Positions 4,908-48,495 of a stretch of 64,000 nt of DNA are shown here, piece by piece. Position 1 is the stretch's first letter. Every line of letters starts with the position of its first letter. The stretch covers positions 66,100 through 130,099 of the forward strand of contig CAIJZX010000016.1 in assembly GCA_903825245.1 (NCBI GenBank), read 5' to 3'. This DNA is from Candidatus Kerfeldbacteria bacterium (GTDB lineage: Bacteria > Patescibacteriota > Patescibacteriia > SBBC01 > CAIJZX01). The notes under the pieces are model-generated. The model was not told the DNA's origin, did no database searches, and saw only the letters and a program-made list of their open reading frames with translations. Position numbers and translations under genes: made by a program.

Positions 4908-4982
4908 TCCCGTTAGAGCGCCCTATATGTCCTTCACTTTGATGAACCAATCACAATCTCAATTTCTTAACGCTCTAATGAG
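4908..4982 (+). repeat. CCCGTTAGA-family palindromic bridge element (a), between the ftsE stop and the ftsX ATG
   Basis: Arms CCCGTTAGAGCG (4909-4920) and CGCTCTAATGAG (4971-4982) pair 12/13 in the sense RNA including one G-U. The right arm ends directly at the ftsX ATG. Confidence 0.55.
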
Positions 4983-5894
4983 ATGATTACACTGTGGCGG
5001 ATGATTAAATTCGGTTTTCAAGGCTTTGGCCGAAATATTTGGTTATCGGTCGTCACGATTCTCATTGTCGTGCTCAATCTTTTTTTGATGAGTCTGGTGT
5101 CGGGATTGAACGTCGTTGGCCAACAAACACTGACCGCCGTTCGTCAGAAGGTGAACCTATCCGTGTATTTCACGACCACCACGACCGAAGATCGCGTAAA
5201 ACAAGTGCAACAAGATTTGAAAAAATTACCGCAAGTACAATCTATCCGTTACATTAGCCCAGCTGAACATCTTGATGCCTTGAAAAAAGCCAAGGGTGAT
5301 GTGGTCGTCAATGCGATTGCGACGTTAGGAGAAAACCCCTTAGGTGCCGGACTCGTCATATCTGCCACCTCGCTTGATGGCTACACCGCGATTGCTCAAG
5401 CCTTAAAATCTCCGACATATTCCACGATCATTGAAAATACCGGCAATGACTTTTCAACAAATCAATCAATCATCAGCAAACTATCAACGATTGTTGGTCG
5501 TGTCCGTGTCGCTACATATTGGCTGACCGGACTATTTGCCTTTATAGCTATACTCATGGTCTTTAACACCATTCGCGTGGCAATATATTCGCAACGTGAA
5601 GAAATAGCCATCATGAAACTCGTCGGCGCCTCGGATCAATTCGTCCGCGGACCGTTCTTTGTGTCAAGCTTACTCTATGGCATCTTCGCCGGCGTGATCG
5701 TGACCGCCATCCTTGTGCCGCTGCTGACTGTGCTCAATCCGAAATTGCAAATTTTCTTCGCTGGCTACGACATCAACGTCCTTGGCTATGTCCGGGCGAA
5801 CTTATGGGCGATTCTCGGACTTGAAGTTGGTGTTGGTTGTCTGCTTTCTGGATTATCATCGACGCTCGCCATCGGTCGGTACTTGCGCGTGTAA
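4983..5894 (+). CDS. ftsX: Cell-division permease FtsX
   Basis: N-terminal TM, large periplasmic loop, three C-terminal TM helices. Typical FtsX size and position after ftsE. Confidence 0.85.
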   Translation: MITLWRMIKFGFQGFGRNIWLSVVTILIVVLNLFLMSLVSGLNVVGQQTLTAVRQKVNLSVYFTTTTTEDRVKQVQQDLKKLPQVQSIRYISPAEHLDALKKAKGDVVVNAIATLGENPLGAGLVISATSLDGYTAIAQALKSPTYSTIIENTGNDFSTNQSIISKLSTIVGRVRVATYWLTGLFAFIAILMVFNTIRVAIYSQREEIAIMKLVGASDQFVRGPFFVSSLLYGIFAGVIVTAILVPLLTVLNPKLQIFFAGYDINVLGYVRANLWAILGLEVGVGCLLSGLSSTLAIGRYLRV

Positions 5895-5895
5895 C

Positions 5896-6217
5896 TATGG
5901 CCAAACGCAAACAGGATTTGTATGAATCGCTGGACGTCGATACAGTTGATACTCCGGCGGCTAAACAAGTATCGGCTTTTTGTATCTACATTATGCGCAG
6001 TAAAAAAGATGGCCGGCTGTACATCGGTAGCGGCGTTAATGCCGATGAATGCGTGAAACGCCACAACTTCGGCGACTACCGAGCAACCAATGGCCAGCGC
6101 CCATGGAAGCTCATCTACCACGAAGGATTCGCCACCAAACCGGAAGCGGTGAAACGTGAATGGTTCCTCAAGAGCAACGAAGGAAAAGTCTTCGTTGATA
6201 GTTTACATATTAAATAA
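5896..6217 (+). CDS. Small GIY-YIG nuclease-family protein
   Basis: FCIYIMRSKKDGRLYIGSGVNADECVKRHN...EAVKREWFLK matches the GIY-YIG (UPF0213-like) fold. Start moved to the first ATG after the ftsX stop. Confidence 0.65.
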
Positions 6218-6293
6218 CGACACCTTTAGCCAGGTATTTGATACTACCGGGTCTTGATTTAGCATATACGCCGTGGTACACTGGCCGACGTAT

Positions 6294-6367
6294 TCGGGGA
6301 TCGTCTAATGGTAGGACAGCGGCCTTTGAAGCCGTCGATCGGGGTTCGAGTCCCTGTCCCCGAGCCA
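6294..6367 (+). tRNA. tRNA-Gln (anticodon TTG)
   Basis: Acceptor TCGGGGA/TCCCCGA, anticodon stem GCGGC/GCCGT with loop CTTTGAA, T-stem CGGGG/CCCTG with TTCGAGT loop, CCA encoded. Confidence 0.8.
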
Positions 6368-6377
6368 AAAAAATATT

Positions 6378-6455
6378 ATGAGTCGCATCGCCATCATTAT
6401 TATCGCCGCTATGATTATCATCATTGTGGTGTATTTGCTGACGAATCCAAAATAG
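6378..6455 (+). CDS. 25-aa hydrophobic, Ile-rich mini-ORF (MSRIAIIIIAAMIIIIVVYLLTNPK)
   Basis: ATG 10 nt after the tRNA-Gln. No obvious Shine-Dalgarno. A single predicted TM helix. Its 3' end overlaps copy 1 of the 33-bp repeat. Confidence 0.25.
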   Translation: MSRIAIIIIAAMIIIIVVYLLTNPK

Positions 6456-6475
6456 CATTCGATTGGGTGAGGAGG
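6443..6475 (+). repeat. 33-bp direct repeat, copy 1 (GAATCCAAAATAGCATTCGATTGGGTGAGGAGG)
   Basis: 32/33 identical to the copy at 8727-8759. The two copies bracket the beta-helix protein gene. Confidence 0.8.
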
Positions 6476-6521
6476 AGGCATGTGCCATCGACGGCATGGT
6501 AGTTCGATTTTTCGTTAATCG

Positions 6522-8717
6522 ATGATTCAGATACGAACCTTGTTTCCTGATTGGTTTGTATGGTGTATCATCTACATGCATCATATGAAGCACTTAGAAA
6601 CAACAAATCCGACCACCGTCCGCAATCGGTTTACCCTGGCAATCCGGGTGTTTTTCATTGCCACGCTAACATTGAGTAGTGGATCAATTATCCTGGCGGT
6701 TGCACTTATGGTCGCATCGCCTAATGGCGACGGCGGAAGTGGCGGACCGTGTAATGTTCAGATTACCAGTTTGCCGTATAATCTGAATGCAACCGGAAAA
6801 GTTTATTGCCTGGCCAAAAACATTACTGTTACTGCCGCAGCATCAGACTTTACGTTTACCGCTGATAATATCACACTCGATGGTCAGGGATATACTGTTT
6901 CGAGTACGGGTGCGGGTACGAGTAAGATTACTCTATCTGGTCGCCGCCACGTCATCATCAAAGCCCTGACCATTCCTAATGATATTTCGATAACGAATGG
7001 TGACCATAATCAAATACTCAATACCCACAATAGTGGGTTAACAATGACTACCACGAACGACAATACCATTTCGGGGAATACCGTCAATATTCCGGCGGGT
7101 GGTTATGCTGCCCTTCAATTGTCAGGCATCGATAGCAAGTACATTGAAGGCAACACCATTGTCGGGAATACGTTCGGCCAATCATCGACCGGCTACTCTG
7201 ATATGCGTTTTATCCGGATATACTGTGCGCGGAATAATCTCTTTGAGGCCAATACCGTGACCATGACCGGTGGTGGGAATATTATGCAGGCGCATTACGC
7301 GTTTTTTAATACGTTCAAGAATAATATCTATACCGTCAACTACCCGATCACCACGAACGACGGTAGTGAACGATACGGTTGGTACATCCGCGATGGATCA
7401 TCCTATAATACGTTCATTGGTAACACCGTACGTTCCAATCAAGTAGCCGCCCGCATTGGCGGGCCAGGCAATGTAACGGTGCCGTGGGGGCACGATAATC
7501 TGCTGAAAGGGAATAGCTTTTATGGTGGTCTACCGGTATTAGTACCGGGAAAGGCCGATGTTCTATTGCCGACCGCATCGGTTCTAGCACACGACACGAC
7601 GACCGGTAATGATACCTTCGACCATAACCTTTTTTACGCCTATCAAACGGATACAGCAGCGGTGCAAATAGGAGTCGGTGACGTAGGTGCGCCGCCGACG
7701 TATTTTACCAACAATACCATCTACGCCAGACAGGGCACAGGTCTTCGCATTGAAGGATCTGGCAAGGTGTCTAGCCGAAATAATTTGTTTTACAGTTTTG
7801 ATAGCCCCGCTATGTATCTTAAGGACAACGATACCTCGACATATCAAGGGGATAATAACTTATATTGGCAGGTTGGGTCGACCAAGCCGATTACTTGGCA
7901 GCGTAGTTGCTGCGGTCCACAGATCGTGTCCGTACAAACTTTCCGTACTGATAGTGCTAATGCCGGCAAGGATCAAAATTCACTCGGCACAGACCCCTTG
8001 CTGGATCAGACGAACTACACATCACTCGGCTCAGCCAGTCCCGCGATAGATGCTGGTAACCATGCCATTCCGCCGTCGCCGTACGGAGGACCATATATTG
8101 ATATCGGAAAATTCGAATATCCAAAAAATACAGCTCCCGACGTGACACCGCCGACCCTGACTGTTGTCTACCCTGACTTGAATACTCGTTCAACTCCCGC
8201 CGGTCGGTATATTTCATCAACCGGTTTGATAGCCGGCTTGGCTCGCGATAATGGCGACGTCAAGCAGGTGCGAGTGGAGATTGATGGCCGTTGGTATACA
8301 GCCTTAGGAACGAACAGCTGGGGATTATCACTACGGAATGTCTCATTGACGACACTAGCGACACACAACCTGATTGTCCAGGCCATCGATGCCGCCGGAA
8401 ATGCAACCACGAGTCCGGCCATGTCTTTTGTGATCGATGATACACCGCCGACCGGATCAATTACCACCCCAACTACCCCAGCCCTATCAGGGGATGGCAC
8501 CATGTCGGCAGGGGCTAGCGATGCTATTGGAATTGCCTCAGTGCAATTCCATCTTGATGATAATCCGGTCGGCTTCGTTGATTATGATGCGCCATACAGT
8601 GGGGTGACCAATACTAGGATTTATTCCAATGGCACGCATCGGCTGAGCGCCACCATTATGGATACCGCCGGTAATTTCTTCGTCACGCCAACAGTTGTAA
8701 TCACGATTACAAACTAA
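6522..8717 (+). CDS. Large secreted/surface protein with right-handed parallel beta-helix repeats and C-terminal Ig-like domains
   Basis: N-terminal hydrophobic segment. Repeated NxxISGNTV / IVGNTF / NNIYT beta-helix motifs across about 400 aa. C-terminal Thr/Pro linker and Big-like domains. The start may be at 6576 or 6585. Confidence 0.6.
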   Translation: MIQIRTLFPDWFVWCIIYMHHMKHLETTNPTTVRNRFTLAIRVFFIATLTLSSGSIILAVALMVASPNGDGGSGGPCNVQITSLPYNLNATGKVYCLAKNITVTAAASDFTFTADNITLDGQGYTVSSTGAGTSKITLSGRRHVIIKALTIPNDISITNGDHNQILNTHNSGLTMTTTNDNTISGNTVNIPAGGYAALQLSGIDSKYIEGNTIVGNTFGQSSTGYSDMRFIRIYCARNNLFEANTVTMTGGGNIMQAHYAFFNTFKNNIYTVNYPITTNDGSERYGWYIRDGSSYNTFIGNTVRSNQVAARIGGPGNVTVPWGHDNLLKGNSFYGGLPVLVPGKADVLLPTASVLAHDTTTGNDTFDHNLFYAYQTDTAAVQIGVGDVGAPPTYFTNNTIYARQGTGLRIEGSGKVSSRNNLFYSFDSPAMYLKDNDTSTYQGDNNLYWQVGSTKPITWQRSCCGPQIVSVQTFRTDSANAGKDQNSLGTDPLLDQTNYTSLGSASPAIDAGNHAIPPSPYGGPYIDIGKFEYPKNTAPDVTPPTLTVVYPDLNTRSTPAGRYISSTGLIAGLARDNGDVKQVRVEIDGRWYTALGTNSWGLSLRNVSLTTLATHNLIVQAIDAAGNATTSPAMSFVIDDTPPTGSITTPTTPALSGDGTMSAGASDAIGIASVQFHLDDNPVGFVDYDAPYSGVTNTRIYSNGTHRLSATIMDTAGNFFVTPTVVITITN

Positions 8718-8726
8718 CGGCCAACG

Positions 8727-8759
8727 GAATCCAAAATAACATTCGATTGGGTGAGGAGG
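8727..8759 (+). repeat. 33-bp direct repeat, copy 2
   Basis: GAATCCAAAATAACATTCGATTGGGTGAGGAGG lies immediately after the beta-helix gene stop. It contains a -35-like TTGGGT, which with TATAGT (8770-8775) at 17-bp spacing forms a plausible promoter for the antiporter gene. Confidence 0.8.
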
Positions 8760-8775
8760 GGATTTGTGCTATAGT
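8744..8775 (+). promoter_or_regulatory. Putative sigma70-like promoter (TTGGGT-17-TATAGT) for the antiporter gene
   Basis: Hexamers read directly from the sequence. A local palindrome TGTGC-TATAGTAT-GCACA overlaps the -10. Confidence 0.35.
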
Positions 8776-8798
8776 ATGCACAAAGACCAACACTCATT

Positions 8799-8878
8799 CA
8801 TCCCGTTAGAGCGCACCATGCTCAAACCACAAACGAAAATAAACCTACAATGTAACGACGTGCCACTCTAACGGGATG
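8799..8878 (+). repeat. CCCGTTAGA-family palindromic bridge element (b) in the antiporter 5' leader
   Basis: Perfect 13-bp inverted repeat CATCCCGTTAGAG (8799-8811) / CTCTAACGGGATG (8866-8878). The right arm contains the antiporter ATG at 8876-8878. Confidence 0.6.
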
Positions 8879-10558
8879 CATAGCAATATCACCGAATTAG
8901 CAATCCTGTTGTCGGCCACAGCCATCGTGGGCATGGTGGCACGAGTTTTACGTCAGCCAATGATTTTAGCCTACCTGGTGGTCGGCGGCATTATTAGTGC
9001 GTTAGGAATTATTCGTATCAGTTCGAGTCCGCTGTATACGACCTTTGGCGATCTTGGGGTAACGTTTTTATTGTTCCTCATTGGCTTAGAAATCAACGTC
9101 AGTTCACTGAAAAAAGTTGGTCCGGCTTCAATCGTCCTCGGCATCGGCCAAATCGTCATTACCTTTGTCGGCGGATTTTTTCTTGGTCTCTTAATGGGAC
9201 TGAGTCCCATTAGCGCCGCGTACATTGCTATCGCTTTAACATTCTCCAGCACGGTCATTGTCGTCAAATTACTGTCGGAAAAACAAGACATGAATTCTCT
9301 CTACGGCAAACTGTCGCTGGGAATTCTGTTAGTGCAAGACGTCGTTGCAATTTTATTGCTTGTTGTTCTAGCCGGCTTACGCCCGGGTGAGGGGATGACG
9401 TTGGCGCCGGTGGTGTTAACGGTCGGTGAAGCATTATTGTTGTTTGCCTTTACCTACTGGCTGGGACGGACGATCATGCCCAAGCTCTTCGAACAATTCG
9501 CCCGATCAGAAGAATTATTATTCATCACCAGTTTGGCGTGGGTTCTCCTCATGTCTGCAGCCGTGCAAAAACTAGGCTTCTCCATTGAGATCGGCGGATT
9601 CCTGGCCGGACTGTCACTCGCCAATTCATCGATGCATTACCAAATCGCCAGTCGTGTGCGGCCTCTGCGTGATTTTTTTATCGCCTTGTTCTTCATTGTC
9701 CTTGGCAGTTCCGTTGTGTTGTCAAACTTTTCTGATGTCACAATGCCGGTAATTGTTTTTTCACTCTTCGTTCTCATCGGTAATCCGGTGATCGTCCTCA
9801 TCATTATGGGTTTCATGGGCTATCATCGTCGTACCAGCTTTTTAACCGGTATCACGGTCGCTCAAATATCTGAGTTTTCACTTGTCCTAGCCGCGCTCGG
9901 TTTACGACTCGGGCATATTACGAATGCTGATGTGACGATTATTACCGCCGTTGGCGTCATCACGATTGCTCTTTCATCGTACATGATGATCTATGGTGAT
10001 AAGATATATCAGTTCATTACGCCAGTCGTCGCATTTTTTCATCGCGGCCACTTACCGCAGGAACCAATCGAAAAATCATCACTCGATAAACCGATTCTGC
10101 TCATCGGCGCGCACCGCATAGGACGGGCACTCGCTGACCGCTTACACAAAAAAGATTTACTGATTATGGATTTTGACCCCGATGTTATTGTGTCGTTGAA
10201 GCACGATGGCTATCGCACCGTCTTTGGTGACAGTAATGACACTGACTTGATGTCGGAAATACCTTTCAAACACGTGAAATTAATTATTTCTACGTCGCCC
10301 GATGTTGAAGATAATGTACACTTGCTAGCATATTCACGATGCCAACCCGGCGCCAAGAAACGTAAGCTCATTATGCGTGCCGACAACGATTTCGATGCTG
10401 CCACGTTGTACAAACACGGCGTGGATTATGTCCTTCAACCGCAATTGTCGACCGGACAATACCTCGGACGCATGATTCGCAGTGATAAAACATTAAAAAT
10501 TCTCGAACAGCTTCGTACCCACGACCTCTCACTCGCTCACCGCACCGCCCATGAGTAA
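8876..10558 (+). CDS. CPA2-family cation:proton antiporter with C-terminal RCK/TrkA-N domain (KefB/KefC-like)
   Basis: About 12 TM helices followed by a Rossmann-like ILLIGAHRIGRALA motif. Confidence 0.75.
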   Translation: MHSNITELAILLSATAIVGMVARVLRQPMILAYLVVGGIISALGIIRISSSPLYTTFGDLGVTFLLFLIGLEINVSSLKKVGPASIVLGIGQIVITFVGGFFLGLLMGLSPISAAYIAIALTFSSTVIVVKLLSEKQDMNSLYGKLSLGILLVQDVVAILLLVVLAGLRPGEGMTLAPVVLTVGEALLLFAFTYWLGRTIMPKLFEQFARSEELLFITSLAWVLLMSAAVQKLGFSIEIGGFLAGLSLANSSMHYQIASRVRPLRDFFIALFFIVLGSSVVLSNFSDVTMPVIVFSLFVLIGNPVIVLIIMGFMGYHRRTSFLTGITVAQISEFSLVLAALGLRLGHITNADVTIITAVGVITIALSSYMMIYGDKIYQFITPVVAFFHRGHLPQEPIEKSSLDKPILLIGAHRIGRALADRLHKKDLLIMDFDPDVIVSLKHDGYRTVFGDSNDTDLMSEIPFKHVKLIISTSPDVEDNVHLLAYSRCQPGAKKRKLIMRADNDFDAATLYKHGVDYVLQPQLSTGQYLGRMIRSDKTLKILEQLRTHDLSLAHRTAHE

Positions 10559-11948
10559 TCTGACTATCACGTTTTGCGGTGCCGACGGCGCCGTCACCGG
10601 CTCGAAACATTTACTTGATGATGGCCAGCACAAATTGCTGCTCGATTGCGGTCTCGAACAGGGGAGAGATCAGGCACCGCACCAGGATCAATTACCGTTC
10701 AACGCGCAAGAAATCAACGCCGTCGTTATTTCTCACGCCCATCTCGACCATATCGGATTACTCCCGGTACTCGTGAAACAAGGCTTTACCGGAAAAATAT
10801 ATTCTACTGATGCCACCAAAGATTTAAGCGAACAAATTCTTCTCGATGCCGCGCATTTACAGGAACAAGACGCCGCCTATGCCGCGAAAAAAAAGTGGGA
10901 AGGATGGGATCAAATACATCCGTTATATACCGTCGATGACATCGGTCCGGTAATGGAAAAGTGGCAAACAATTCCGTATCAGTTTATCCAATCTGGGTGG
11001 ACAGATGTTTTGCCGAGTGTACAAGTAAAACTGTATGATGCGGGCCACATTCTCGGTTCAGCAGTCACTGTCGTTTCGATGGGCGGGACGACATTAGCCT
11101 ATACCGGTGACTTAGGCCGGTACGATGCACCGCTTTTACGCGACCCAGATCCACTAGCGGAAACAATTGAAACATTGATCATGGAATCAACCTACGGCAA
11201 TCGCTTGCATCATCCCGTGTCGGCAATTAACGATCAGCTCATTCAAGTGGTGAAGAACACCGCGATTCGCGGTGGGAAAATTATCGTCCCGGCATTCTCG
11301 CTCGGCCGAACGCAAGAATTCGTCTACATCATCCACAAACTCACCGACGAAGGATTGTTTCCGCGCATTCCGATTGTAGTTGATAGTCCACTGGCCAGCC
11401 GTATCACAGCAGTTTTCACGAAGCATCAACAGGACTATGATAAAGCCGTCGGCGAAGATTTCTCACGCAAAGGTGAAGATCCTTTGATATTCAGCAACTT
11501 GCGCTACACGCAAACCGTCGAAGAATCGAAAGCGTTGAATACGACACCCGGTCCGTTAATCATTATTAGTGCCTCCGGTATGGCCAGCGGCGGCCGCGTT
11601 ATGCACCATCTCGCGAATAACCTTGCTGATCCAAAAAACACGATTCTCTTTACCGGTTACCAAGCTGTCGGAACACTCGGCCGATCCCTGGTCGAAGGAG
11701 CGAAACAAGTCCACATGTTCGGCCAGAAAATCGCTGTACGAGCCGAAATATCGGTTCTGAACGACCTTTCGGCGCATGCTGACGCTTTAGAGCTTGAACG
11801 GTATTCCGGGGCTATAAACGGCCTCCAGCGCGTCTTCCTCGTTCACGGCGAGCAAGACCGTTCCGAAGCCCTCCGCGACAGCCTCCTGATGCGCCATCCG
11901 CAGTGGAAGGTGATCGTGCCGCATGTGGGGGAAGTAGAGACGATCTAA
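10551..11948 (+). CDS. MBL-fold beta-CASP ribonuclease (RNase J/CPSF-like)
   Basis: HAHLDHIG metallo-beta-lactamase motif. Later beta-CASP region with ESTYG and HADA... motifs. Confidence 0.7.
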   Translation: MSNLTITFCGADGAVTGSKHLLDDGQHKLLLDCGLEQGRDQAPHQDQLPFNAQEINAVVISHAHLDHIGLLPVLVKQGFTGKIYSTDATKDLSEQILLDAAHLQEQDAAYAAKKKWEGWDQIHPLYTVDDIGPVMEKWQTIPYQFIQSGWTDVLPSVQVKLYDAGHILGSAVTVVSMGGTTLAYTGDLGRYDAPLLRDPDPLAETIETLIMESTYGNRLHHPVSAINDQLIQVVKNTAIRGGKIIVPAFSLGRTQEFVYIIHKLTDEGLFPRIPIVVDSPLASRITAVFTKHQQDYDKAVGEDFSRKGEDPLIFSNLRYTQTVEESKALNTTPGPLIIISASGMASGGRVMHHLANNLADPKNTILFTGYQAVGTLGRSLVEGAKQVHMFGQKIAVRAEISVLNDLSAHADALELERYSGAINGLQRVFLVHGEQDRSEALRDSLLMRHPQWKVIVPHVGEVETI

Positions 11949-11961
11949 CAAAAATCTATAC

Positions 11962-12000
11962 AACACGTAGCTGGGGGTTTCAAACCCCCGGCTACGTGTT
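11962..12000 (+). terminator. Perfect 16-bp-stem hairpin after the ribonuclease gene
   Basis: AACACGTAGCTGGGGG-TTTCAAA-CCCCCGGCTACGTGTT. No downstream T-tract. Confidence 0.5.
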
Positions 12001-12156
12001 GACAAAAACCCCGAAATACGCTAGCATCAAGCGTTATTTTGCGTTCTGCAAAATAACCCCGCTAAGGAGCACCAAACGGTGTTCCAGTGTGTCTCTCCCA
12101 GGACACGAGTCATTTCGACGGAGCGGGTTCCGGCTACAACGGCCAGGAGGAACACG

Positions 12157-12618: not shown

Positions 12619-12645
12619 CCCTTCGGCCTGCAGGCAAAAGCCGGC

Positions 12646-12676
12646 CACCTCGTACGACAGTGCGAGGTGTTTTTCT
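12646..12676 (+). terminator. Rho-independent terminator
   Basis: CACCTCG...CGAGGTG stem followed by TTTTTCT. Confidence 0.6.
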
Positions 12677-13976: not shown

Positions 13977-14021
13977 TGGACTACTGGCCCGATTGGAAGG
14001 AAACGAGTATTGCTCCAAGTA

Positions 14022-14057
14022 GACCGATGTATGTACACACATCGGTCTTTTTCTTTT
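14022..14057 (+). terminator. Rho-independent terminator of the NHL gene
   Basis: GACCGATGT...ACATCGGTC stem followed by TTTTTCTTTT. Confidence 0.65.
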
Positions 14058-15526: not shown

Positions 15527-15527
15527 T

Positions 15528-17151: not shown

Positions 17152-17997
17152 ATGCTTTCGACGCTTCAATCTGTTCTCGAAAAGGCACAACGCGGAAAAT
17201 ACGCAGTCGGAGCATTTAATATTTCCGACCTCGAACAAGCCCAAGCAGTCGTTACCGCGGCTGAAATTTTGCAATCGCCGGTGATTATTAACACTTCAGA
17301 AAAAGCGCTCGAATACGCCGGGATTGAAAATTTATCAGCGATTGTTACGTCGCTTGCCAAGCATGTCAAAGTTCCGGTCGTCTTAAACCTCGACCACGGA
17401 CGCGACGTGAAAATCGCTCACCATTGCCTCCAGCAAGGTTGGACGGGGATTATGTTTGACGGATCGAAATTACCGTATGAAGAAAATGTTGCAACGACTG
17501 CCGCGGTAAAAAAATACGCTAAGAAGTTCGGTGTTGGTGTTGAAGGTGAAATCGGTCAAGTGAAATACAAAGAGGACATGAAGATTTCCAAGAAACCAGT
17601 ACTGGCCACACCGGAAGAGGCGGTTGATTTTGTACAACGAACGCATGTTGATGCTCTCGCCGTTGGTATTGGCAATAGCCACGGCCTGCCAGTTCCGGGT
17701 GAACGATTACATTTTGATCTGTTACAGCGAATACATCGAGCGGTCAAAGTACCTTTAGTATTGCACGGCGCCTCAGGCACACCGACGGCGAGCATCAAAA
17801 AGGCGATTCACTATGGCATTTGTAAAATCAACATTGATACCGATCTGCGGCTTGTTTTTACAGCTAGTGTCCGCGAAACATTGAAAGACCAATCGATTTT
17901 TGATCCTCGCGCCTACTTAACTCCTGCTCGACACGCGATCATGGATGAAGTCAAGAAGAAAATAATGATGTTCGGTAGTAATGGCAAAGCCAAATGA
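17152..17997 (+). CDS. fba: Class II fructose-/tagatose-bisphosphate aldolase
   Basis: YAVGAFNI..., LNLDHG and LHGASG motifs. Confidence 0.8.
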   Translation: MLSTLQSVLEKAQRGKYAVGAFNISDLEQAQAVVTAAEILQSPVIINTSEKALEYAGIENLSAIVTSLAKHVKVPVVLNLDHGRDVKIAHHCLQQGWTGIMFDGSKLPYEENVATTAAVKKYAKKFGVGVEGEIGQVKYKEDMKISKKPVLATPEEAVDFVQRTHVDALAVGIGNSHGLPVPGERLHFDLLQRIHRAVKVPLVLHGASGTPTASIKKAIHYGICKINIDTDLRLVFTASVRETLKDQSIFDPRAYLTPARHAIMDEVKKKIMMFGSNGKAK

Positions 17998-34433: not shown

Positions 34434-35684
34434 TTATGGCTTGATAACCTTCAACCCGTGCATGTACGGCTGGAGGACTTTCGGAATTTTGATTGAGCCG
34501 TCCGGCTGTTGGTAGTTCTCAATAATCGCAATCAACGTCCGGCCGACGGCGAAGGCAGTACCGTTCAACATGTGGACGAATTCTTTTTTGCCATTTCGCT
34601 CAATTTTAATATTTAAGGCACGCGATTGATAATCCGTCGTCGTCGATGTTGACGACACTTCGCGATATTCATTCTGCCCCGGCATCCAAGCTTCAATATC
34701 GTACGTTCGCGCGCTTGGCCAGCTGATATCGCCGGTGCAGAGATTGAGTACGCGGTACGGAATATCGAGCCCTTGCCACAATTTCTCCTCAAGCGACAGA
34801 ATGAGCAGATGTTCTTGGTCGGATTGCTCCGGCGTGGTGAACGAAAACATTTCCAGTTTATCAAATTGGTGGACGCGGAGAATTCCTTTCGTGTCCTTGC
34901 CGTAGCTTCCCGCTTCGCGGCGGAAACATGTGGAGAACGACAGATAGCGTTTTGGCAGGTCCGATTCTTGAAATACTTCATCGCGATGCATCGGCCCGAC
35001 GGATTGTTCCGACGTACCGACGAGGTACAGTTTATCTTTGTCGAAGTGGTAGGTTTCATCCTCGCCGCCGCCATTCAAATAACCCATGGCCGCCATATTT
35101 TCCTCTTTAATCATCACCGGCGGCACGACCATGGTAAATCCTTGTTTCAAAATCACCGACTGCGCATACTGCACGAGGGCAAATTCAAGCTGAGCAATCG
35201 GGCCAAGCAGATACCCGAATCGTGAACCGGAAACTTTACTCGCCCGGCGGACGTCAATCAACTCTGCCGGTTCCGTCAGCGCCAAGTAGTCTTTCGGATC
35301 TGCGATGTTTTTTTTCTTGCCAACATCGCGCAGGACAACATTTCCCGCTTCATCGTCCCCTGCCGGTACGTCATCGCGCGGAATATTCGGCATGACAATT
35401 TCCTCGACGCCATTCTTGGCTTTCTTCAAAACAGTAATGCGATCAGAAATAGGTTTTAGTTCAGCGATTTTTTTCTTTTTTTCTTCAACCGAAAGCGTCG
35501 GGATGATTTTGCTGGCTTCATTTACCTGGGCCTGCAATTGTTCGAGTTCCTGCTGGGAATCCGATTGCCCATGGGCAGAATCTGCTTTCAGCGCGCTGAG
35601 TAAACCGACAAACTTTTTTCCCCGACGTGAAATTGCCTGGTAGTATTTTTCCGGATTGTCGCGGTAGTCTTTGAGATCAATCAT
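34434..35684 (-). CDS. serS: Seryl-tRNA synthetase
   Basis: N-terminal coiled-coil arm. Class II motifs FRREAGSYGKDTKGILRVHQFDKLE and GTAFAVGRTLIAIIE. Confidence 0.9.
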   Translation of the reverse strand: MIDLKDYRDNPEKYYQAISRRGKKFVGLLSALKADSAHGQSDSQQELEQLQAQVNEASKIIPTLSVEEKKKKIAELKPISDRITVLKKAKNGVEEIVMPNIPRDDVPAGDDEAGNVVLRDVGKKKNIADPKDYLALTEPAELIDVRRASKVSGSRFGYLLGPIAQLEFALVQYAQSVILKQGFTMVVPPVMIKEENMAAMGYLNGGGEDETYHFDKDKLYLVGTSEQSVGPMHRDEVFQESDLPKRYLSFSTCFRREAGSYGKDTKGILRVHQFDKLEMFSFTTPEQSDQEHLLILSLEEKLWQGLDIPYRVLNLCTGDISWPSARTYDIEAWMPGQNEYREVSSTSTTTDYQSRALNIKIERNGKKEFVHMLNGTAFAVGRTLIAIIENYQQPDGSIKIPKVLQPYMHGLKVIKP

Positions 35685-35820
35685 CCCGTTAGAAGTGAAT
35701 TATAATAATCTATACTTGTCACCATGCTGTACCCTATTGTATTTTCTACTATCTACGAACGATTCATATCGTTTGGGAATTAGAGGTCTGCCTAACTTTT
35801 TTCTTCACTTCTAACGGGAT
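35683..35820 (-). repeat. CCCGTTAGA-family palindromic bridge element (c), between the rdgB-like 3' end and the serS ATG
   Basis: Perfect 17-bp inverted repeat ATCCCGTTAGAAGTGAA (35683-35699) / TTCACTTCTAACGGGAT (35804-35820). The left arm abuts the serS start codon, read on the minus strand. The right arm lies inside the last codons of the upstream gene. Confidence 0.65.
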
Positions 35821-36424
35821 CATGGTAGAACTGTTGAATGTGTGGAAGAAGTTTTAATAATGCTTGACGACGATGATTCAGTTCGGGATGTTCTTTTTTT
35901 GCTTGAACATACCACTGCTGAAACTGCGGTAAGTATAGAAGAACATCGAACGGATAGCCAGGTGTCATCTGTAGGTCGCTTGGCTGTAATACCCCCGGAA
36001 CGACGCCTTCAGCCTGTGCAAACTGATCATCACCAAACATAAACGTTACCACATTCCGAAGTTGCATCTGCCGTTGATCGGCCGGAATAGCTTTCGTTGC
36101 CGCGATGGCCTTGGTTCGAATAACCTCGTCCGTTAATTCTTCCTCACTATCCCAACGCCGCGTTCTAACACCTGGTGCGCCATGGAGAAAGGCAATTTCC
36201 GCTCCGCTATCGTCAGTCAGACAAGGCACGTGCACTCGTTCCCAATAGAATGTCGCTTTGGCTAACGAATTTTGTTCAAAAGTTGACGCATCTTCCGCCG
36301 GTGAATCAGTAATTCCACATTCAACGGGCGTGATGAGTTCAAGATCAAGTCCACCAAGAATAGCTTGGAAATCTTTAAGCTTCTGAGGATTATTCGTGCC
36401 AATCAACAAACGACGGTCCTTCAT
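35792..36424 (-). CDS. Non-canonical purine NTP pyrophosphatase (RdgB/Ham1 family)
   Basis: LLIGTNNPQKLKDF N-terminus and Ham1-like core. Confidence 0.6.
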   Translation of the reverse strand: MKDRRLLIGTNNPQKLKDFQAILGGLDLELITPVECGITDSPAEDASTFEQNSLAKATFYWERVHVPCLTDDSGAEIAFLHGAPGVRTRRWDSEEELTDEVIRTKAIAATKAIPADQRQMQLRNVVTFMFGDDQFAQAEGVVPGVLQPSDLQMTPGYPFDVLLYLPQFQQWYVQAKKEHPELNHRRQALLKLLPHIQQFYHDPVRSEEKS

Positions 36425-41112: not shown

Positions 41113-41113
41113 G

Positions 41114-41641
41114 TTAAAATGATTGATAGAGTGACGTCGTCACTCGACCGTAGCGATCACGGCCGAGCACTCTCCAAAGTATCGACAAGAGCACGGGGTG
41201 AGTGACACATTGGCAAAGTGTCGCATACAACATGGTCACCGTATCGACATGGATATGTTGATGGTTGAGTGCCGCTTCGAGTAGACCGATACCGATTACG
41301 AGACCACCGTAGGTCACGGTCCCAGCAATAATTGAAGCCAAAAAACTCGCCGTCGAACGACTGGTCACGACGCGCTGACTTATCAGCCACGTGATAATAG
41401 TTGCACCGAGACAACCAATGACATACATACTCCCGCCCACCGCTGTCACGTACGAAAATAGTAGCCCTATAACCACCGCGGCTATTGCACCGATAGTTAG
41501 TCCATCAAGTACGGTGATAACAATGAGCACTAATACCGGTACATTGATAATCATTCTCCAACCAGAAAACATTCCACCCCAAGCAATATCACCACCAATA
41601 CACAGGAGTGCAACACCATATCCGTACCAACGTCGGTTCAT
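41114..41641 (-). CDS. mreD: Rod shape-determining protein MreD
   Basis: Polytopic membrane protein of about 176 aa. Start placed at the ATG at 41639-41641 (MNRRWYG...), 4 nt after the mreC stop. The longer listed ORF overlaps mreC out of frame. Confidence 0.55.
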   Translation of the reverse strand: MNRRWYGYGVALLCIGGDIAWGGMFSGWRMIINVPVLVLIVITVLDGLTIGAIAAVVIGLLFSYVTAVGGSMYVIGCLGATIITWLISQRVVTSRSTASFLASIIAGTVTYGGLVIGIGLLEAALNHQHIHVDTVTMLYATLCQCVTHPVLLSILWRVLGRDRYGRVTTSLYQSF

Positions 41642-41645
41642 GATA

Positions 41646-42458: not shown

Positions 42459-43488
42459 TCGACATCACGAGGACATTCTTCATGACATTTAAATCCTCAA
42501 GTACAATTCCTGTCCCGCGAACAACCGCCGTGAGTGGGTCATCGGTAACATGAACGACCATGTGCGTCTCCGCATGAATAGCGTTCGACAATCCCCGCAG
42601 TAGCGCCCCACCACCAGATAGGACAATCCCCCGCTCGTAAATATCAGCCACGAGCTCCGGCGGCGTACTTTCAATGGTGGCTTTAATGTTTTCCACCATT
42701 TGTCGAACTGTTCGTTGCAAGGCGTCGTACACTTGTTTGCTGGTAATCGTTACTTCTCGCGGTAAGCCAGTGATAAGATCCCGCCCACGAACACGTGTTT
42801 CGACAACATTGCCATCGTCCCAAACTGTACCAATTTTTAGTTTAATTTCTTCAGCACTGCGTTCGCCAACTAATAAATTATATTGTTCACGAGCATATTG
42901 AATAATATCCTGATCCAACTTATTGCCGCCAATCCGAAGCGAACGCCAAGAAACTACACCACCGAGAGAAATAACAGCTATTTCCGTTGTTCCGCCGCCG
43001 ATATCGACAATCATCGTGCCAGAAGCTTCTTGAATTGGTAACCGGGCACCGATTGCCGCCGCCATAGGTTCTTCAATCAGGTAGACTTCGCGAGCACCAG
43101 CGTTGAGCGCCGCATCTTCTACCGCTTTTCGTTCGACTTCCGTAACTCCTAACGGTATGCCGACCACCACTCGCGGACGCGGCGCGAAGCCCATTGCTGG
43201 GCGCTGAACTTGATCAATAAAATACTTCAACATTTTTTCGGTTACTTCAAAATCTGAAATAACTCCGTCAACCAGTGGCTTAGTTGCGACAATATGACCA
43301 GGTGTTTTTCCCACCATGCGGCGAGCTGCTTCACCAACAGCTAGTACTTGATTCGTTTTGGTATTAATCGCCACAACCGATGGCTCGTTGATAACGATTC
43401 CTTTATCACGAACGTAGACCAGCGTATTTGCGGTACCTAGGTCAATTCCGAGATCGTGAGAAAAACGACTAAAAAGGTTATTCAACAT
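42433..43488 (-). CDS. mreB: Rod shape-determining protein MreB
   Basis: Actin-fold motifs DLGTANTLVYV, DIGGGTTEIAV. Confidence 0.9.
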   Translation of the reverse strand: MLNNLFSRFSHDLGIDLGTANTLVYVRDKGIVINEPSVVAINTKTNQVLAVGEAARRMVGKTPGHIVATKPLVDGVISDFEVTEKMLKYFIDQVQRPAMGFAPRPRVVVGIPLGVTEVERKAVEDAALNAGAREVYLIEEPMAAAIGARLPIQEASGTMIVDIGGGTTEIAVISLGGVVSWRSLRIGGNKLDQDIIQYAREQYNLLVGERSAEEIKLKIGTVWDDGNVVETRVRGRDLITGLPREVTITSKQVYDALQRTVRQMVENIKATIESTPPELVADIYERGIVLSGGGALLRGLSNAIHAETHMVVHVTDDPLTAVVRGTGIVLEDLNVMKNVLVMSSDDQAVGI

Positions 43489-43491
43489 ATA

Positions 43492-44586
43492 TTACCGGAA
43501 GAGTAAGCGAATTTGTTCAAGCAATCGGAATTTTGAAACATCACGAATACTCAAGAGAATTATGACCAGTAACAAGCCATAAAATCCGATAGTATGAACC
43601 GTGTTTTCAATTTTTGTGTCAACAGGACGCCCACGAAATTTCCCGATCACGAGAAATAGCGCTCGCCCACCATCAAGCGCCGGCAACGGCAAGAAGTTTA
43701 CGACCGCCAAACTAATTGATAGTATAGCCATAAATTGTACGGTCGCTGCGAAACCATACTGAATGACCTGCCCAGTCAAAACGGCAATCCCCACTGGACC
43801 AGAAACGTCCGAACTAACGCTGGCCGTAACCACGAGATCATGAAGGAGTTTCCAAAAACCTTGCAAGGTCTGACCAATTAATTGGCCAGTCGATTGTAAG
43901 CCATACCAGGGGGCGATGTACCACGCATACCGCACCGTCGTAACATTTTGAATTCCTAAACCGTACCGGGGAAGATTCGGATCCGTGTGTGGCGTGACAA
44001 TAATTTCTTTCGTTCTGCTTGCCCGCTGAACAACAATATGAAATACGGGATAATTATTGGCCTTGGCGTAGGTAATAATCTGGTCGGTCGTAGTAAAATG
44101 TTGATCATTGATGCTCACTACAACATCGCTCGATCGAAGACCGGCAGCAATAGCTGCCCCGCCATCACTAACTTGCACTTCCACGTGAGTGTTACTTTGA
44201 TGGGCGTAACGGTCATGCGGAACGGTCGTGGCGTCAGTTCGAACACCAAGTACGAGGGTAAAAGAAATTAACACCCAGGCCAGCAGCGCATTCATGGTTA
44301 CGCCCGCCGCCATCACAGCCAACTGCCGTGAAAATCGCGCTTGCGAAAAACTATCGGGTCGCTGTTTTTCATCGCCCGCTTCACCCTGCAGTCGCACAAA
44401 ACCGCCAAATGGTATCCAGTTTAACGTGTATTCCGTACCTCCACGTTTCCAACCGATAATACGCGGCGGAAAACCGAACCCGAATTCTTCGACCGCAATG
44501 CCTGAACGGCGAGCAACAACAAAATGCCCTAACTCATGAACGAAGACTAAAATGCCAAGGATGATGACGAACGCCAGAATAGTCAC
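43492..44586 (-). CDS. rseP: RIP metalloprotease RseP (site-2 protease, M50)
   Basis: HELGHF zinc motif, PDZ domain, LDGG motif. Confidence 0.85.
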   Translation of the reverse strand: MTILAFVIILGILVFVHELGHFVVARRSGIAVEEFGFGFPPRIIGWKRGGTEYTLNWIPFGGFVRLQGEAGDEKQRPDSFSQARFSRQLAVMAAGVTMNALLAWVLISFTLVLGVRTDATTVPHDRYAHQSNTHVEVQVSDGGAAIAAGLRSSDVVVSINDQHFTTTDQIITYAKANNYPVFHIVVQRASRTKEIIVTPHTDPNLPRYGLGIQNVTTVRYAWYIAPWYGLQSTGQLIGQTLQGFWKLLHDLVVTASVSSDVSGPVGIAVLTGQVIQYGFAATVQFMAILSISLAVVNFLPLPALDGGRALFLVIGKFRGRPVDTKIENTVHTIGFYGLLLVIILLSIRDVSKFRLLEQIRLLFR

Positions 44587-44587
44587 G

Positions 44588-45133
44588 TTATATCAGCGTC
44601 AGTTCATCATGCTTTTTTTTGACGATCGTTTCGATCAACCGCAATTGCTCCTCAACAGATTGTTGAAGTTTTTTTAATTCTACCTCGAGTACGTCTTCTG
44701 AAATTTCCGACTGATCCTTCGCTTTTCGTAATTGTTTTATAATGTCTTCCCGAATCGATCGAATCCGAACTCGAGCACTTTCGCCAAGTTCATTCGATTG
44801 TTTGGTCATCAGTATTCGACGTTCTTCGGTCATCGACGGGAATGGTAATCGAATAGTTTTTCCGTCAACGACGGGCGTGATGCCAAGCTGCGACTTCGTC
44901 AACGCCTTCTCGATGTCCTTTGTAATACTTGAATCCCAAGGCTGAATCACAATCAGACGCGGTTCTGGTGCCGCAATCGCCGCCAATTGCTGAAGCGGCG
45001 TCATCGTGCCGTAGGCTTCGACCATCAGATCCTCTACTAACGACGGATTGGCTCGCCCGGTACGGATGGACTGCAATTCGTGCTGAAGATGCTCAACGGC
45101 TTTATTTGCTTGTTCGGAAAAATCGTGAACCAT
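44588..45133 (-). CDS. frr: Ribosome recycling factor
   Basis: Typical 181-aa RRF with the C-terminal helical bundle sequence. Confidence 0.9.
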   Translation of the reverse strand: MVHDFSEQANKAVEHLQHELQSIRTGRANPSLVEDLMVEAYGTMTPLQQLAAIAAPEPRLIVIQPWDSSITKDIEKALTKSQLGITPVVDGKTIRLPFPSMTEERRILMTKQSNELGESARVRIRSIREDIIKQLRKAKDQSEISEDVLEVELKKLQQSVEEQLRLIETIVKKKHDELTLI

Positions 45134-45138
45134 AAGAA

Positions 45139-46194
45139 TTATTTTTTGGCAGTAAAGGTAGCGAAGTACAATCGATCTTTGACATTCGGATCAAACGTCA
45201 ATAGCACCGGCAAACGCGAGGTCGGCAACGACACGACTGACCAGTTTTGACCACCATTCGTCGTGTGCTGAATCTGCTGTCCGGAGGTAATAAATATCTC
45301 GGAAGCATTATTGGGATTCACCGCTACGGTTTGAATGGCCACACTACCGTTTGTCACTAAATTATGAATGCTCGCCCAGGTTCCACCATGATCCGTACTC
45401 GCCAACAAACCGTAGGCTGTGGCTAAATACCACCCATGCGGCGTAATATCAATCTGGCGAATATCTGTAGCCCCAGCAAAAGTTTGTAAGGCCGGCGTCA
45501 TGTCCACCCATTCTTGTCCGAGCCTGAGACTATGAAAAATGCCGTTGGTTCGAGTGAAGATATAGAGTTGGTCTGGAGCCTCGGGTGGAATATAGAGTAA
45601 TCGCGGTTGAATTGCGGCCAGTGTATGGATAAGCGTCCAATGGAGCCCATAATCCGTACTCAGAATAATTTTTCCACCTGACGTCGTTGCCCAAATAATA
45701 TTGCCATTTGCCGGACTCACTTGTACGCAGTTCACCGCCTGACCTGGTTGAGGTTCGGTGTAGACCGTTGACCACGATTGGCCACCATCAATGCTCTTGA
45801 GTATAATTTGCCCAGCCGTCGTGTACATCACTTGTGAATTCAGTGGGTCAAAGGCTAAACATTCATAATCACCAGCACGAATGGATGTCGACTTCCAGGT
45901 ATCGCCGCTATTCGTGGTTGACCAAATACCATTCGCCAGGGTCCCAATATATATAGTCCCACTGGCTGAGGGAATAAAATTGAGTGTCCGGGTTGTGACA
46001 TTGCCGATATTTACTTGGCCATTTTTGTTCGTCCCAACGTAATTTTTCTGTTGCCACGTTTGTCCGTGATCATCGGACCTAAAAATACCACCGTCAAGAC
46101 GAGTTGTGCCACCGATGTTGATTGAACAACTTTGCCCCATCAGCACTAAGCCGACGCTGAGCAGTGCAAGTTTAGACCATGTGGAGGTCGTCAT
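45139..46194 (-). CDS. Secreted BNR/Asp-box repeat beta-propeller protein
   Basis: Signal peptide. Repeated S/T-x-D-x-G-x-T/S-W Asp-boxes: DHGQTW, SGDTWK, DGGQSW, DYGLHW, DHGGTW, NGGQNW. Confidence 0.6.
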   Translation of the reverse strand: MTTSTWSKLALLSVGLVLMGQSCSINIGGTTRLDGGIFRSDDHGQTWQQKNYVGTNKNGQVNIGNVTTRTLNFIPSASGTIYIGTLANGIWSTTNSGDTWKSTSIRAGDYECLAFDPLNSQVMYTTAGQIILKSIDGGQSWSTVYTEPQPGQAVNCVQVSPANGNIIWATTSGGKIILSTDYGLHWTLIHTLAAIQPRLLYIPPEAPDQLYIFTRTNGIFHSLRLGQEWVDMTPALQTFAGATDIRQIDITPHGWYLATAYGLLASTDHGGTWASIHNLVTNGSVAIQTVAVNPNNASEIFITSGQQIQHTTNGGQNWSVVSLPTSRLPVLLTFDPNVKDRLYFATFTAKK

Positions 46195-47137
46195 AAAGTA
46201 GTTGTGGTTGAAGCGAATCGGAAAAGGATGAACGTTGGAGGTAGGCTTCGGCGATACGTTGAAGTTTTTTCAGTGGCAGCCTGGTTAACGATATAACAGT
46301 CTCCTCAGGCCACAGTCGGCGCGTGGTACAACCAATGCCCGCTAACAGTACCTCGCGCACGATGAGTTCTTCGTATTCGAGCTGGTGCAAGAGTATATCT
46401 CGTCGATCGGCTGCGGAGCGAGCTGGTGCCGATAAGGTTCCGTTCATAAATCCCGTGCTGAACTCCCGTACACGTTGTCGCTCGTCTGCCGCTTGATCGA
46501 CGTTTTCGACATAGCGCCGTAACCACCCCGGACGACCCGCTGCGCGCTGAGCCGCAACAGATGTTGCTCCCTGGCGCAGGGTTTTTGGATTCACTAATGA
46601 CCATTGGAAGTGCGTCAACCGTGAACGAAGTGTCGGCAGAAGTTGTTCCGGCACTGAACTCGTCATAAGCACACGAACATGCGGTGGTAATTCTTCAAGA
46701 AATTTTAACAACATGTTGCCGGCTTGTTCCGTAAGTCGTTCTGCATCCGGAATGAACAGCCAGCGCTCTTCACTACCCCACGCTACAGTCATATATGTCC
46801 GCAGCGTGGTGCGAATCTCTTCGACACCAATGGAGGCCGCCGATGTCATTCCCAATTCCGCCACGTTTGGATGCTGATGACTAAGGCGTTGTCGGCAATC
46901 CGAACAGGTACCACACGGTCGCAGATGATCACTGTGACACAGGGCATACTGAATGACCCATTGCGCGAAAGTAGCTTTACCTAGCGATCGTGGGCCGCAG
47001 AAGAGAACCGCTTTTGGTAAGCGTTCGTCATCCAGTAAACCAATAAAACGCTGAATAAGTTCTTCGTTGCCGACGAAGTGAAAAGGTCGTGCTTGAGCAG
47101 TCGTAGGAGTCTTCACAGAACGAAATGACTGTACCAT
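46172..47137 (-). CDS. holB: DNA polymerase III delta' subunit
   Basis: AAA+ clamp-loader fold with a degenerate Walker A (GPRSLGKATFAQ), Zn module C..C..CxxC, SRC-less delta' pattern. Confidence 0.65.
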   Translation of the reverse strand: MVQSFRSVKTPTTAQARPFHFVGNEELIQRFIGLLDDERLPKAVLFCGPRSLGKATFAQWVIQYALCHSDHLRPCGTCSDCRQRLSHQHPNVAELGMTSAASIGVEEIRTTLRTYMTVAWGSEERWLFIPDAERLTEQAGNMLLKFLEELPPHVRVLMTSSVPEQLLPTLRSRLTHFQWSLVNPKTLRQGATSVAAQRAAGRPGWLRRYVENVDQAADERQRVREFSTGFMNGTLSAPARSAADRRDILLHQLEYEELIVREVLLAGIGCTTRRLWPEETVISLTRLPLKKLQRIAEAYLQRSSFSDSLQPQLLYDDLHMV

Positions 47138-47147
47138 ATTTGTCAGC

Positions 47148-48350
47148 TTATTGCAATCCAGCGGCCATAAGCACTGCCCGCGTCTCCATAGCAGTGTTTT
47201 CCCAAGTATAACGTCGAACTAGCACTCCACCCCGACGAATAAGTATCTGACGAAGTTCTTCGTTATGATCAATATCCTGTAATGCGGCTACGACAGTCGA
47301 TATATTTTCCGTATCCACAAAGCATGCAGCCTCACCGAGCACTTCGGGTAATGATCCATGACGACTGGCCACCACCGGCACTCCGGCACTGAGTGATTCT
47401 AAAGCCGGAATACCAAATCCTTCATATTGGGAAATAAAGAGCAATGCTCGAGCTGACACTTGTAAAACCGCCACATCATCATCGGATTGCCAGCCAAGAA
47501 CATGAATGAATTCCACAACTGCTGGATCTGTTACCACTGACCGCATAGCGTCCCAACCAAATCCCGGCCGTCCGACTAATACCAGGTCGATTGGATGCGC
47601 TGATTGTTTTCGATACGTAAGATACGCCTGGACTGTGAGGGCGATGTTTTTTTTCGTCTCCAATCGTCCGAGAAACAAGAAGAATGGCCGCGTCAATCCT
47701 AACCGCTTCAATGTTGAAGCACGTGCAACTACTTTCAATGATTGAAAATACTCCGCTTGACGTACGCCTAACGGTGTGACAGTTATACGTTCCGGTTCAA
47801 CCTTGAGGGTGTCAATAATTTCTCGTTTGGAGAATTCCGATACGGTCAGTATTCGACGGCACGCCCGGATCGCCTGTCGCACTGACCAGCGATGATAATC
47901 GCGCTCCGATGCATTGTAACGGCCAAACGTAGCGATTCGTACACACAGTAAGACAAGTGGCCGAAACCAACCCAACCGTCGCTGTATCCGATCCTGATAT
48001 AACTCCGGAAATCGTTCAAAAGCAACATCATGAATCGTGGTTATTGTATTCTTCGGATGGAAAATCGGTACGGTATCAGCCGGAACAAAAAGGATGTCCG
48101 GACGACACCAAAGCATTTCCCACGACAACCGAAGATGCGACCACAAAAATCCTAACCGCCAGTGCAACACTCGCACCTCTGTGTGTATTCCGAGATCGCC
48201 AAAATCATTCCGTAACGGTTCACGAACATACAAACGGACAATATGGTTATTCAGCGTCGGAACAATTCTCCGAATCACTTCCCACGCGTACCGTTCCGTG
48301 CCGGTTCGTTCGGCGACGTTTGCCCGCGAAGCATCAATGCCGATAATCAT
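47148..48350 (-). CDS. Family-4 (GT-B) glycosyltransferase
   Basis: EGFGIPALESLSAGVPVVAS signature. Confidence 0.75.
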   Translation of the reverse strand: MIIGIDASRANVAERTGTERYAWEVIRRIVPTLNNHIVRLYVREPLRNDFGDLGIHTEVRVLHWRLGFLWSHLRLSWEMLWCRPDILFVPADTVPIFHPKNTITTIHDVAFERFPELYQDRIQRRLGWFRPLVLLCVRIATFGRYNASERDYHRWSVRQAIRACRRILTVSEFSKREIIDTLKVEPERITVTPLGVRQAEYFQSLKVVARASTLKRLGLTRPFFLFLGRLETKKNIALTVQAYLTYRKQSAHPIDLVLVGRPGFGWDAMRSVVTDPAVVEFIHVLGWQSDDDVAVLQVSARALLFISQYEGFGIPALESLSAGVPVVASRHGSLPEVLGEAACFVDTENISTVVAALQDIDHNEELRQILIRRGGVLVRRYTWENTAMETRAVLMAAGLQ

Positions 48351-48352
48351 TT

Positions 48353-48495
48353 ACCCCGTTAGACAATAGTGAATAAAAATGATGACGCCGGCAACAACTC
48401 TTAGTACTCGTTGTTTTCCACTTACCGCCTTGCTTGATAGGTGAACCCCCCTGCTCTCCGTACAGAAAACTTTTAATTGTATTGTCTAACGGGGT
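48353..48495 (-). repeat. CCCGTTAGA-family palindromic bridge element (d), between the mreB-paralog stop and the GT4 ATG
   Basis: Perfect 16-bp inverted repeat ACCCCGTTAGACAATA (48353-48368) / TATTGTCTAACGGGGT (48480-48495). The left arm lies 2 nt from the GT4 start codon. The right arm abuts the stop of the upstream gene. Confidence 0.6.

Follow-up and report, generated by a model that had tools for sequence, protein, structure and literature searches.

Four short intergenic elements in a 64,000-nucleotide stretch of a "Candidatus Kerfeldbacteria" contig (the stretch as a whole is called the window below) are, judging by the organization of their sequences, very probably copies of a non-autonomous DNA transposon family of 50 to 200 bp, similar to MITEs (miniature inverted-repeat transposable elements) and widespread in Patescibacteria (the candidate phyla radiation, CPR). 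Their conserved ends, attributed in the original prediction to a long-range RNA hairpin at the translation initiation region, are best read as transposon terminal inverted repeats. Direct reading of the loci confirmed all four elements in place, and they are termed family A here:

4908-4983, plus strand: element 1, between ftsE (stop TAA, 4905-4907) and ftsX (ATG, 4983-4985); its left arm is T-CCCGTTAGAGCG (4908-4920), whereas the right arm, CGCTCTAATGAG-A (4971-4983), has decayed, as has the flanking repeat (GTAAT, 4904-4908, versus ATGAT, 4983-4987).
8801-8876, plus strand: element 2, in the leader of a Na+/H+ exchanger gene; T-CCCGTTAGAGCG ... CTCTAACGGG-A, with target-site duplication TTCA (8797-8800) and TGCA (8877-8880), matching at three of four bases.
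35685-35818, minus strand: element 3, separating a Ham1/rdgB-like gene from serS (two minus-strand genes); perfect 17-nt arms, and a direct repeat that is a perfect 5-mer, ATCAT (35680-35684 and 35819-35823; ATGAT in gene sense); the serS ATG occupies 35684-35682.
48354-48494, minus strand: element 4, between mreB-like and GT4 genes; C-CCCGTTAGACAATA ... TATTGTCTAACGGG-G, with a perfect target-site duplication TTTA (48350-48353 and 48495-48498; TAAA in gene sense).

By the open reading frame (ORF) table and Pfam, the neighboring genes are ftsE/ftsX, a Na+/H+ exchanger with a TrkA-N domain, Ham1 (rdgB-like)/serS, and an MreB-family gene paired with a GT4 glycosyltransferase. That the elements form a real family with conserved termini was borne out within the window, where all seven exact occurrences of the 9-mers CCCGTTAGA and TCTAACGGG fall inside the four elements and the eighth arm, on the right of element 1, is a decayed CTCTAATGAG. 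The pattern CCCGTTAGA-N(56-116)-TCTAACGGG matches elements 2 and 3, with an expectation of 0.00 in 100 shuffles; the arm gap of element 4 (121 nt) lies beyond the range of the pattern. The interiors are unrelated, as had been proposed, apart from an arm extension, GAGCGC, common to elements 1 and 2. The further proposal that every element spans from the stop or last codons of one gene to the start of the next holds for elements 1, 3, and 4, while element 2 is only start-adjacent and lies in a leader 80 nt past the previous stop. Start codons follow the CGGG/GAG end at a distance of 0 nt (elements 1, 2, and 3) or 4 nt (element 4), and the A of the ftsX, antiporter, and serS starts is the last base of the respective element (for the antiporter ATG at 8876-8878, the terminal A at 8876). 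The Ham1-like ORF enters element 3 for eight sense codons and stops there at TAG (35794-35792). In element 4, the right duplicate holds the stop TAA of the mreB-like gene (48498-48496), and the left duplicate holds the A of the GT4 ATG (48350-48348).

Further copies, for which a pattern search had been suggested, were found by the hundred in viral, metagenomic, and related contigs (14 matching stretches in viral contigs and at least 120 in metagenome contigs). From these three kinds of contig, 160 distinct copies of 51 to 214 bp were pooled. Because the scans demanded exact 9-mers at both ends, the sample is skewed to intact copies; the rest of each copy, outside those 18 bases, was measured without bias. 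All share the plan [TNNA] Y-CCCGTTAGA-nnn ... nnn-TCTAACGGG-R [TNNA], in which terminal inverted repeats of 13 nt are enclosed by a target-site duplication of 4 bp, or sometimes 5 bp. In 97 of 160 copies the perfect stretch of the inner arm measures exactly 12 nt, and 109 copies form two further outer pairs. Watson-Crick pairing, counted over 161, rises from 23 at position −3 to 126 at −2 and 152 at −1, and on the inner side falls from 150, 147, and 130 at positions 10, 11, and 12 to 35 at position 13; the arms thus pair at 78-94% across positions −2 to 12 and at random farther in or out. Positions 10 to 12 differ among copies (about 20 symmetric triplets) but remain complementary.

The flanks of these copies carry the mark expected of a target-site duplication. 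The six bases adjoining each end follow the pattern N-T-N-N-A-Y to the left of the element and R-T-N-N-A-N to its right; left and right flanks agree over the four positions of TNNA at frequencies of 0.81, 0.72, 0.71, and 0.79, and the middle two bases vary across copies. Agreement at four or more of five flanking positions was observed in 100 of 160 copies; permuted pairs averaged 26 and never exceeded 37. The targets are chiefly TGAA/TTCA and TAAA/TTTA, and the terminal helix gains its fourteenth base pair from the left duplicate's A and the right duplicate's T.

Orthologous junctions in relatives provide the second line of evidence. By its FtsX relatives, the window falls within Patescibacteria, near "Candidatus Kerfeldbacteria" and Uhrbacteria metagenome-assembled genomes (MAGs). 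Among 30 ftsX-centered loci, copies were present only in L028, L002, and L003, a patchy distribution; exact arms occur once in L003 and also in L028 (21 kb of an Uhrbacteria MAG, holding five copies if degenerate ones are included), and L002 carries one degenerate copy. The antiporter start, which reads ...CAACACTC ATTCA T[element]A TGCA TAGC in the window, is empty in L002 (...CAACACCC ATGCA TAAT) and likewise in L170, L176, and L178. In L169, L172, and L176, ftsE and ftsX simply overlap as ATGA, and in L174 and L178 they lie 2-3 nt apart, all five loci encoding an FtsX that is 71-79% identical to that of the window; elsewhere the same junction is occupied by a second family, termed B and described below (L001 and L170), or by A and B copies in tandem (L002). 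At the serS start, L165-L168 lack an element and show an ATGA overlap with the upstream stop. By these comparisons, the window copies are lineage-specific insertions into otherwise conserved junctions. An argument for selection on the arms, drawn from element 1 and the L002 copy (arms 23/26 identical, interiors about 50%), was withdrawn, as closer relatives are empty; because of these empty sites, the two copies may be independent insertions of one subfamily.

The stop-to-start span follows from the geometry of insertion, which restores both codons. Among 152 copies with enough flanking sequence, an ORF of at least 80 codons begins exactly at the terminal purine in 51, the stops of upstream ORFs peak at the left duplicate (21) and at the TAG of the arm (17), and 23 copies bridge stop to start on one strand. 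The left arm has TAG in another frame, and the right arm has TAA. Where insertion hits the TGAN within an ATGA stop/start overlap, the left duplicate preserves the upstream TGA; where it hits a TAAA at a stop, the left copy preserves the TAA. The terminal purine together with the right duplicate forms ATG (T...A ends) or GTG (C...G ends) downstream. In the older copies, elements 1 and 2, the duplicated upstream ATG is mutated (GTA and ATT, respectively), and the ftsE stop is retained (TGA to TAA). Shine-Dalgarno sites are nearly absent from the gene starts of the window, gene overlaps are frequent, and the sequences of the starts suggest leaderless or coupled initiation. Several window genes have a −10-like box 6-8 nt ahead of the ATG (e.g., starts at 17152, 22673, 28237, and 58542). 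In compact, Shine-Dalgarno-poor genomes with many overlaps, the insertions that survive would be those at junctions that rebuild both codons.

Mobility of family A is further indicated by the distribution of interiors and insertion sites. Hundreds of copies share ends, and several subfamilies share interiors that are about 90% identical between unrelated flanks, although most interior clusters consist of a single copy. Nested, tandem, and tight 27-36 nt hairpin copies occur, and no ORF family recurs inside copies, which have no coding capacity. In L097, a 75-nt copy at the murG start (8377-8451) is readable in frame (MNPVRN...SNGV), such that ORF callers lengthen MurG, and a mini copy of about 36 nt (9739-9768) lies in frame within murD (..VNPVRNQKSSNGVN..). 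Copies also lie between rpmE, prfA, prmC, and gmk. One structured subfamily (L124, 7823-7942; L076, 6857-6975; L113, L055, L059, and L100) has two GC-rich internal hairpins and a second, internal CCCGTTAGA. This internal copy could compete with the outer left arm for the right arm, so that either helix would exclude the other; nested insertions are present in some members.

The copies would be mobilized in trans, through a transposase of the DDE type whose cut is staggered by 4 bp. A mechanism of the piggyBac/IS1380 type is a tentative candidate, conceivable though rather doubtful. Several observations weigh against transposition as the full account. First, neither the enzyme nor a parent element was encountered: about 1.6 Mb of locus sequence contained no autonomous insertion sequence sharing these ends and no distant pair of them around a transposase, no protein family recurs near copies among 769 ORFs in about 0.9 Mb of loci, and no DDD/E transposase was found in any locus examined. 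Solo arms, considered as possible ends of a long element, all pair with nearby degenerate partners. Second, 120 of 140 interior clusters are singletons, an unusual pattern if MITEs are amplified from a single master. Third, several viral-contig copies are without a clear duplication. Fourth, the variable arm triplet stays complementary in its approximately 20 versions, which calls for lineage-specific recognition by the transposase, correction of one arm by the other, or selection that maintains pairing. Fifth, similar interiors share orientation relative to the duplication strand 67 to 3, despite unrelated flanks and neighbor genes, a coupling that is not expected of symmetric cut-and-paste insertion without selection.

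Long-range inverted repeats were also considered as an autonomous element and rejected, the L097 pair enclosing murG/ftsW and the L111 pair enclosing sigma-factor and anti-sigma genes. In the latter (7073-9249), one element occurs in two inverted copies, both with a TCAA duplication, on either side of a 2-kb sigma-factor/anti-sigma operon, and the whole may be a composite mobile unit.

The last two of the points against transposition also bear on a rival explanation, close to that of the original prediction, in which the arms are conserved because a long-range helix in the transcript controls the downstream start, whether by coupling or shunting, by occlusion, or by processing to leaderless mRNA. 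Predicted folding of the four loci agrees with this as far as pairing is concerned: the arms pair in both minimum free energy and centroid structures, on both strands (z −2.4 to −5.5), and the long-range helix is predicted, as had been proposed, to take in the start codon (its first two bases). The helix ends sharply at 14 bp, its inner positions being variable yet complementary, and unusual initiation is plausible where almost no Shine-Dalgarno sites exist and several genes appear leaderless. Interior orientation is coupled to gene direction, and the duplicated upstream start opens an ORF through the element in 18 of 39 copies, a figure that drops to 7 of 39 after reversal of the element in silico; this bridging ORF ends at a UAA 4 nt before the real start, at a UGA overlapping it, or in frame. 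The sense strand of the four window copies showed neither promoter nor terminator, and the copies are therefore probably co-transcribed.

However, the junctions themselves argue against a conserved regulatory or processing RNA. Close relatives have the same junctions without elements, as plain ATGA overlaps, and the target-site duplications mark insertion events. Only about one third of copies abut a start codon; the other two thirds do not, and some lie inside coding regions or beside tRNAs. The argument that the mismatches of element 1 become a G-U pair only in the sense transcript did not survive, since each strand has one G-U and one A-C pair and the antisense fold is at least as stable; in general, both strands fold equally well. 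Across 145 copies oriented by their neighbors, core-arm G-U pairs do not exceed A-C mismatches on the sense strand (20 versus 36), orientation calls of this kind being crude. No Rfam family corresponds to the elements: with Rfam 15, the window yielded tRNAs only at gathering score, and eight loci with about 15 copies yielded only chance microRNA-like hairpin matches at E ≤ 1. A portable Shine-Dalgarno sequence was likewise rejected, GGAGG preceding the right arm in few copies and without enrichment (7 versus 6 of 56). A cis-acting hairpin as the reason for arm conservation is therefore improbable.

With the arms read as transposon ends, the terminal RNA helix would be a by-product of the inverted repeats rather than the reason for their conservation. 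The 14-bp helix may nonetheless aid tolerance in co-transcribed RNA by drawing stop and start together. Orientation coupling and bridging ORFs, which a purely passive element would not explain, point to either orientation-dependent selection or orientation-specific insertion, and on their account the hairpin may have a secondary role in translational coupling. A more specific proposal joins these elements: the copies would be built for silent insertion at overlapping stop/start junctions in compact, Shine-Dalgarno-poor operons, the left duplicate or the TAG/TAA of the arm restoring stops in the other frames and the helix looping out the insert such that a terminating ribosome re-initiates across its base (a bacterial counterpart of ribosome shunting), and would be moved by a piggyBac/IS1380-like transposase of undescribed type. 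We regard this combination as unlikely; were it true, these would be the first piggyBac-like MITEs described in bacteria, and a helix that preserves translational coupling would represent a new bacterial re-initiation route.

The transposon family matters in several respects. Patescibacteria are regarded as streamlined, and here an abundant mobile family lies inside essential operons (ftsEX, serS, murG, and rpmE-prfA-prmC). Parasitic DNA would persist with almost no non-coding space by landing on stop/start junctions and restoring both codons. The copies cause systematic gene-calling errors, namely N-terminal extensions (MNPVRN...) and C-terminal read-through, and they offer inexpensive markers by which strains and lineages can be typed in metagenomes. 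Literature searches turned up no account of elements of this kind in CPR bacteria.

Family B, a sister family of family A, is also represented in the window:

55635-55735, no strand assigned: family B copy, CCCAGCACCACAATG ... CATTGTGGTGCTGGG, with perfect 16-nt arms (CCCAGC...GCTGGG), between GT2 and Schlafen-like helicase genes; target-site duplication TCAA (55631-55634 and 55736-55739).

At the ftsE-ftsX junction of L001/L170 and L002, family B copies have ATGA/TATGA duplications. Other features of the window and its relatives were recorded alongside. Upstream of the antiporter gene, the window has a 731-aa beta-helix/Ig-domain gene (6522-8717) that is absent from L002 (11676-11810). Direct repeats of about 33 nt, GAATCCAAAATANCATTCGATTGGGTGAGGAGG, lie on both sides of this gene (6445-6477 and 8727-8760). 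L002 and L176 retain a hydrophobic ORF of 25 aa (6380-6457 in the window), which in them immediately precedes the antiporter gene. After ftsX comes a small ORF resembling GIY-YIG nucleases (5895-6293 in the window; 4931-5245 in L176), which is conserved in relatives and went unflagged in the 90-aa ORF list. The tRNA-Thr of the window lies between 18-nt inverted repeats (1326-1343 and 1416-1433) that are 83% complementary, and at L028 10929-11024 a tRNA acceptor stem is lengthened by TCCCGCCCTCTTC/GAAGAGGGCGGGA. Two tight perfect palindromes follow genes at 11961-12001 and 14021-14048, one with 20-nt arms and a 1-nt loop, the other with 14-nt arms followed by a T run, resembling a terminator.

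Among known systems, hairpin-forming DNA sites suggest another rival explanation, in which the elements are sites for a recombinase or DNA-binding protein: either attC-like cassette boundaries, or repetitive extragenic palindromic sequences (REP, and the REPINs formed from them) moved as single-stranded hairpins by a REP-associated tyrosine transposase (RAYT) of the HUH type. Both resemble family A in forming hairpins, in conserving ends and structure over sequence, and in size. In particular, lengths of about 50-160 bp, conserved ends, variable centers, and occasional arrays between consecutive genes (L087 and L104) are attC-like, the tight 27-36 nt hairpin versions are REP-like, and orientation coupling is typical of single-strand mechanisms. 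The attC core has the order RYYYAAC...GTTRRRY. Family A has the opposite order, GTTAGA...TCTAAC, with housekeeping operons (ftsEX, serS, rpmE-prfA-prmC, and murG) as its flanks; integron-like arrays were ruled out, the genes being housekeeping or tandem paralogs. REP/REPIN elements are RAYT-associated and make no target duplication, whereas family A has variable duplications, and neither an integrase nor a RAYT recurs among the genes near copies. The variable 4-bp direct repeats, which co-vary left and right within a subfamily, are not made by attC or HUH mechanisms. This explanation is highly improbable.

Two further systems are comparable to family A by functional analogy only. Rickettsia palindromic elements (RPEs) are likewise in-frame palindromic repeats within genes, as seen here for murD and murG in L097; RPEs differ in having conserved interiors and no reported rebuilding of start codons. 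Mycobacterial interspersed repetitive units (MIRUs) are intergenic operon units with small ORFs overlapping the upstream stop and the downstream start, reminiscent of the bridging ORFs observed here, but they consist of direct repeats in tandem and lack both inverted ends and target duplications.

With respect to the ends themselves, IS1380 elements have 4-5 bp duplications and CC ends, and the piggyBac end, CCCTAGAAAGATA / CCCTAGAAAG, resembles the family end CCCGTTAGAAAG, a resemblance that is a lead rather than a test. piggyBac elements, whose hallmarks are CCC termini and a duplication of 4 bp, target TTAA, with rare TAAA, TCAA, and GTAA variants, and IS1380, their prokaryotic relative, is used as an outgroup (PMC10813416). 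Family A likewise combines a 4-bp target duplication with short terminal repeats starting CCC; its target is TNNA, mostly TGAA or TAAA, as opposed to the TTAA specificity of piggyBac proper.

The closest likeness is to bacterial MITEs of about 50-600 bp, such as the Correia elements of Neisseria, MITEAba12, and Nezha, in size, lack of coding capacity, inverted ends, target duplications, and numerous dispersed copies. These too are often intergenic, co-transcribed, and able to fuse with neighboring coding sequences, and the transcripts of Correia elements form hairpins. MITEs are defined, and MITEAba12 is described, as small, non-coding elements with inverted ends and target duplications that are dispersed and can fuse with neighboring coding sequence (PMC6382973). 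Family A displays the corresponding features: a length of 51-214 bp, no transposase gene, 13-nt inverted repeats, a target duplication, and presence or absence at orthologous sites. As compared to Correia elements, MITEAba12, and Nezha, it has no identified parent insertion sequence, shares only about 13 nt per end with most interiors unrelated, and is distinguished by a 4-bp TNNA duplication, Y-CCC ends, a start-rebuilding purine, and a strong orientation bias. Family A is thus a new MITE-like family with a codon-rebuilding geometry and a bias of orientation.

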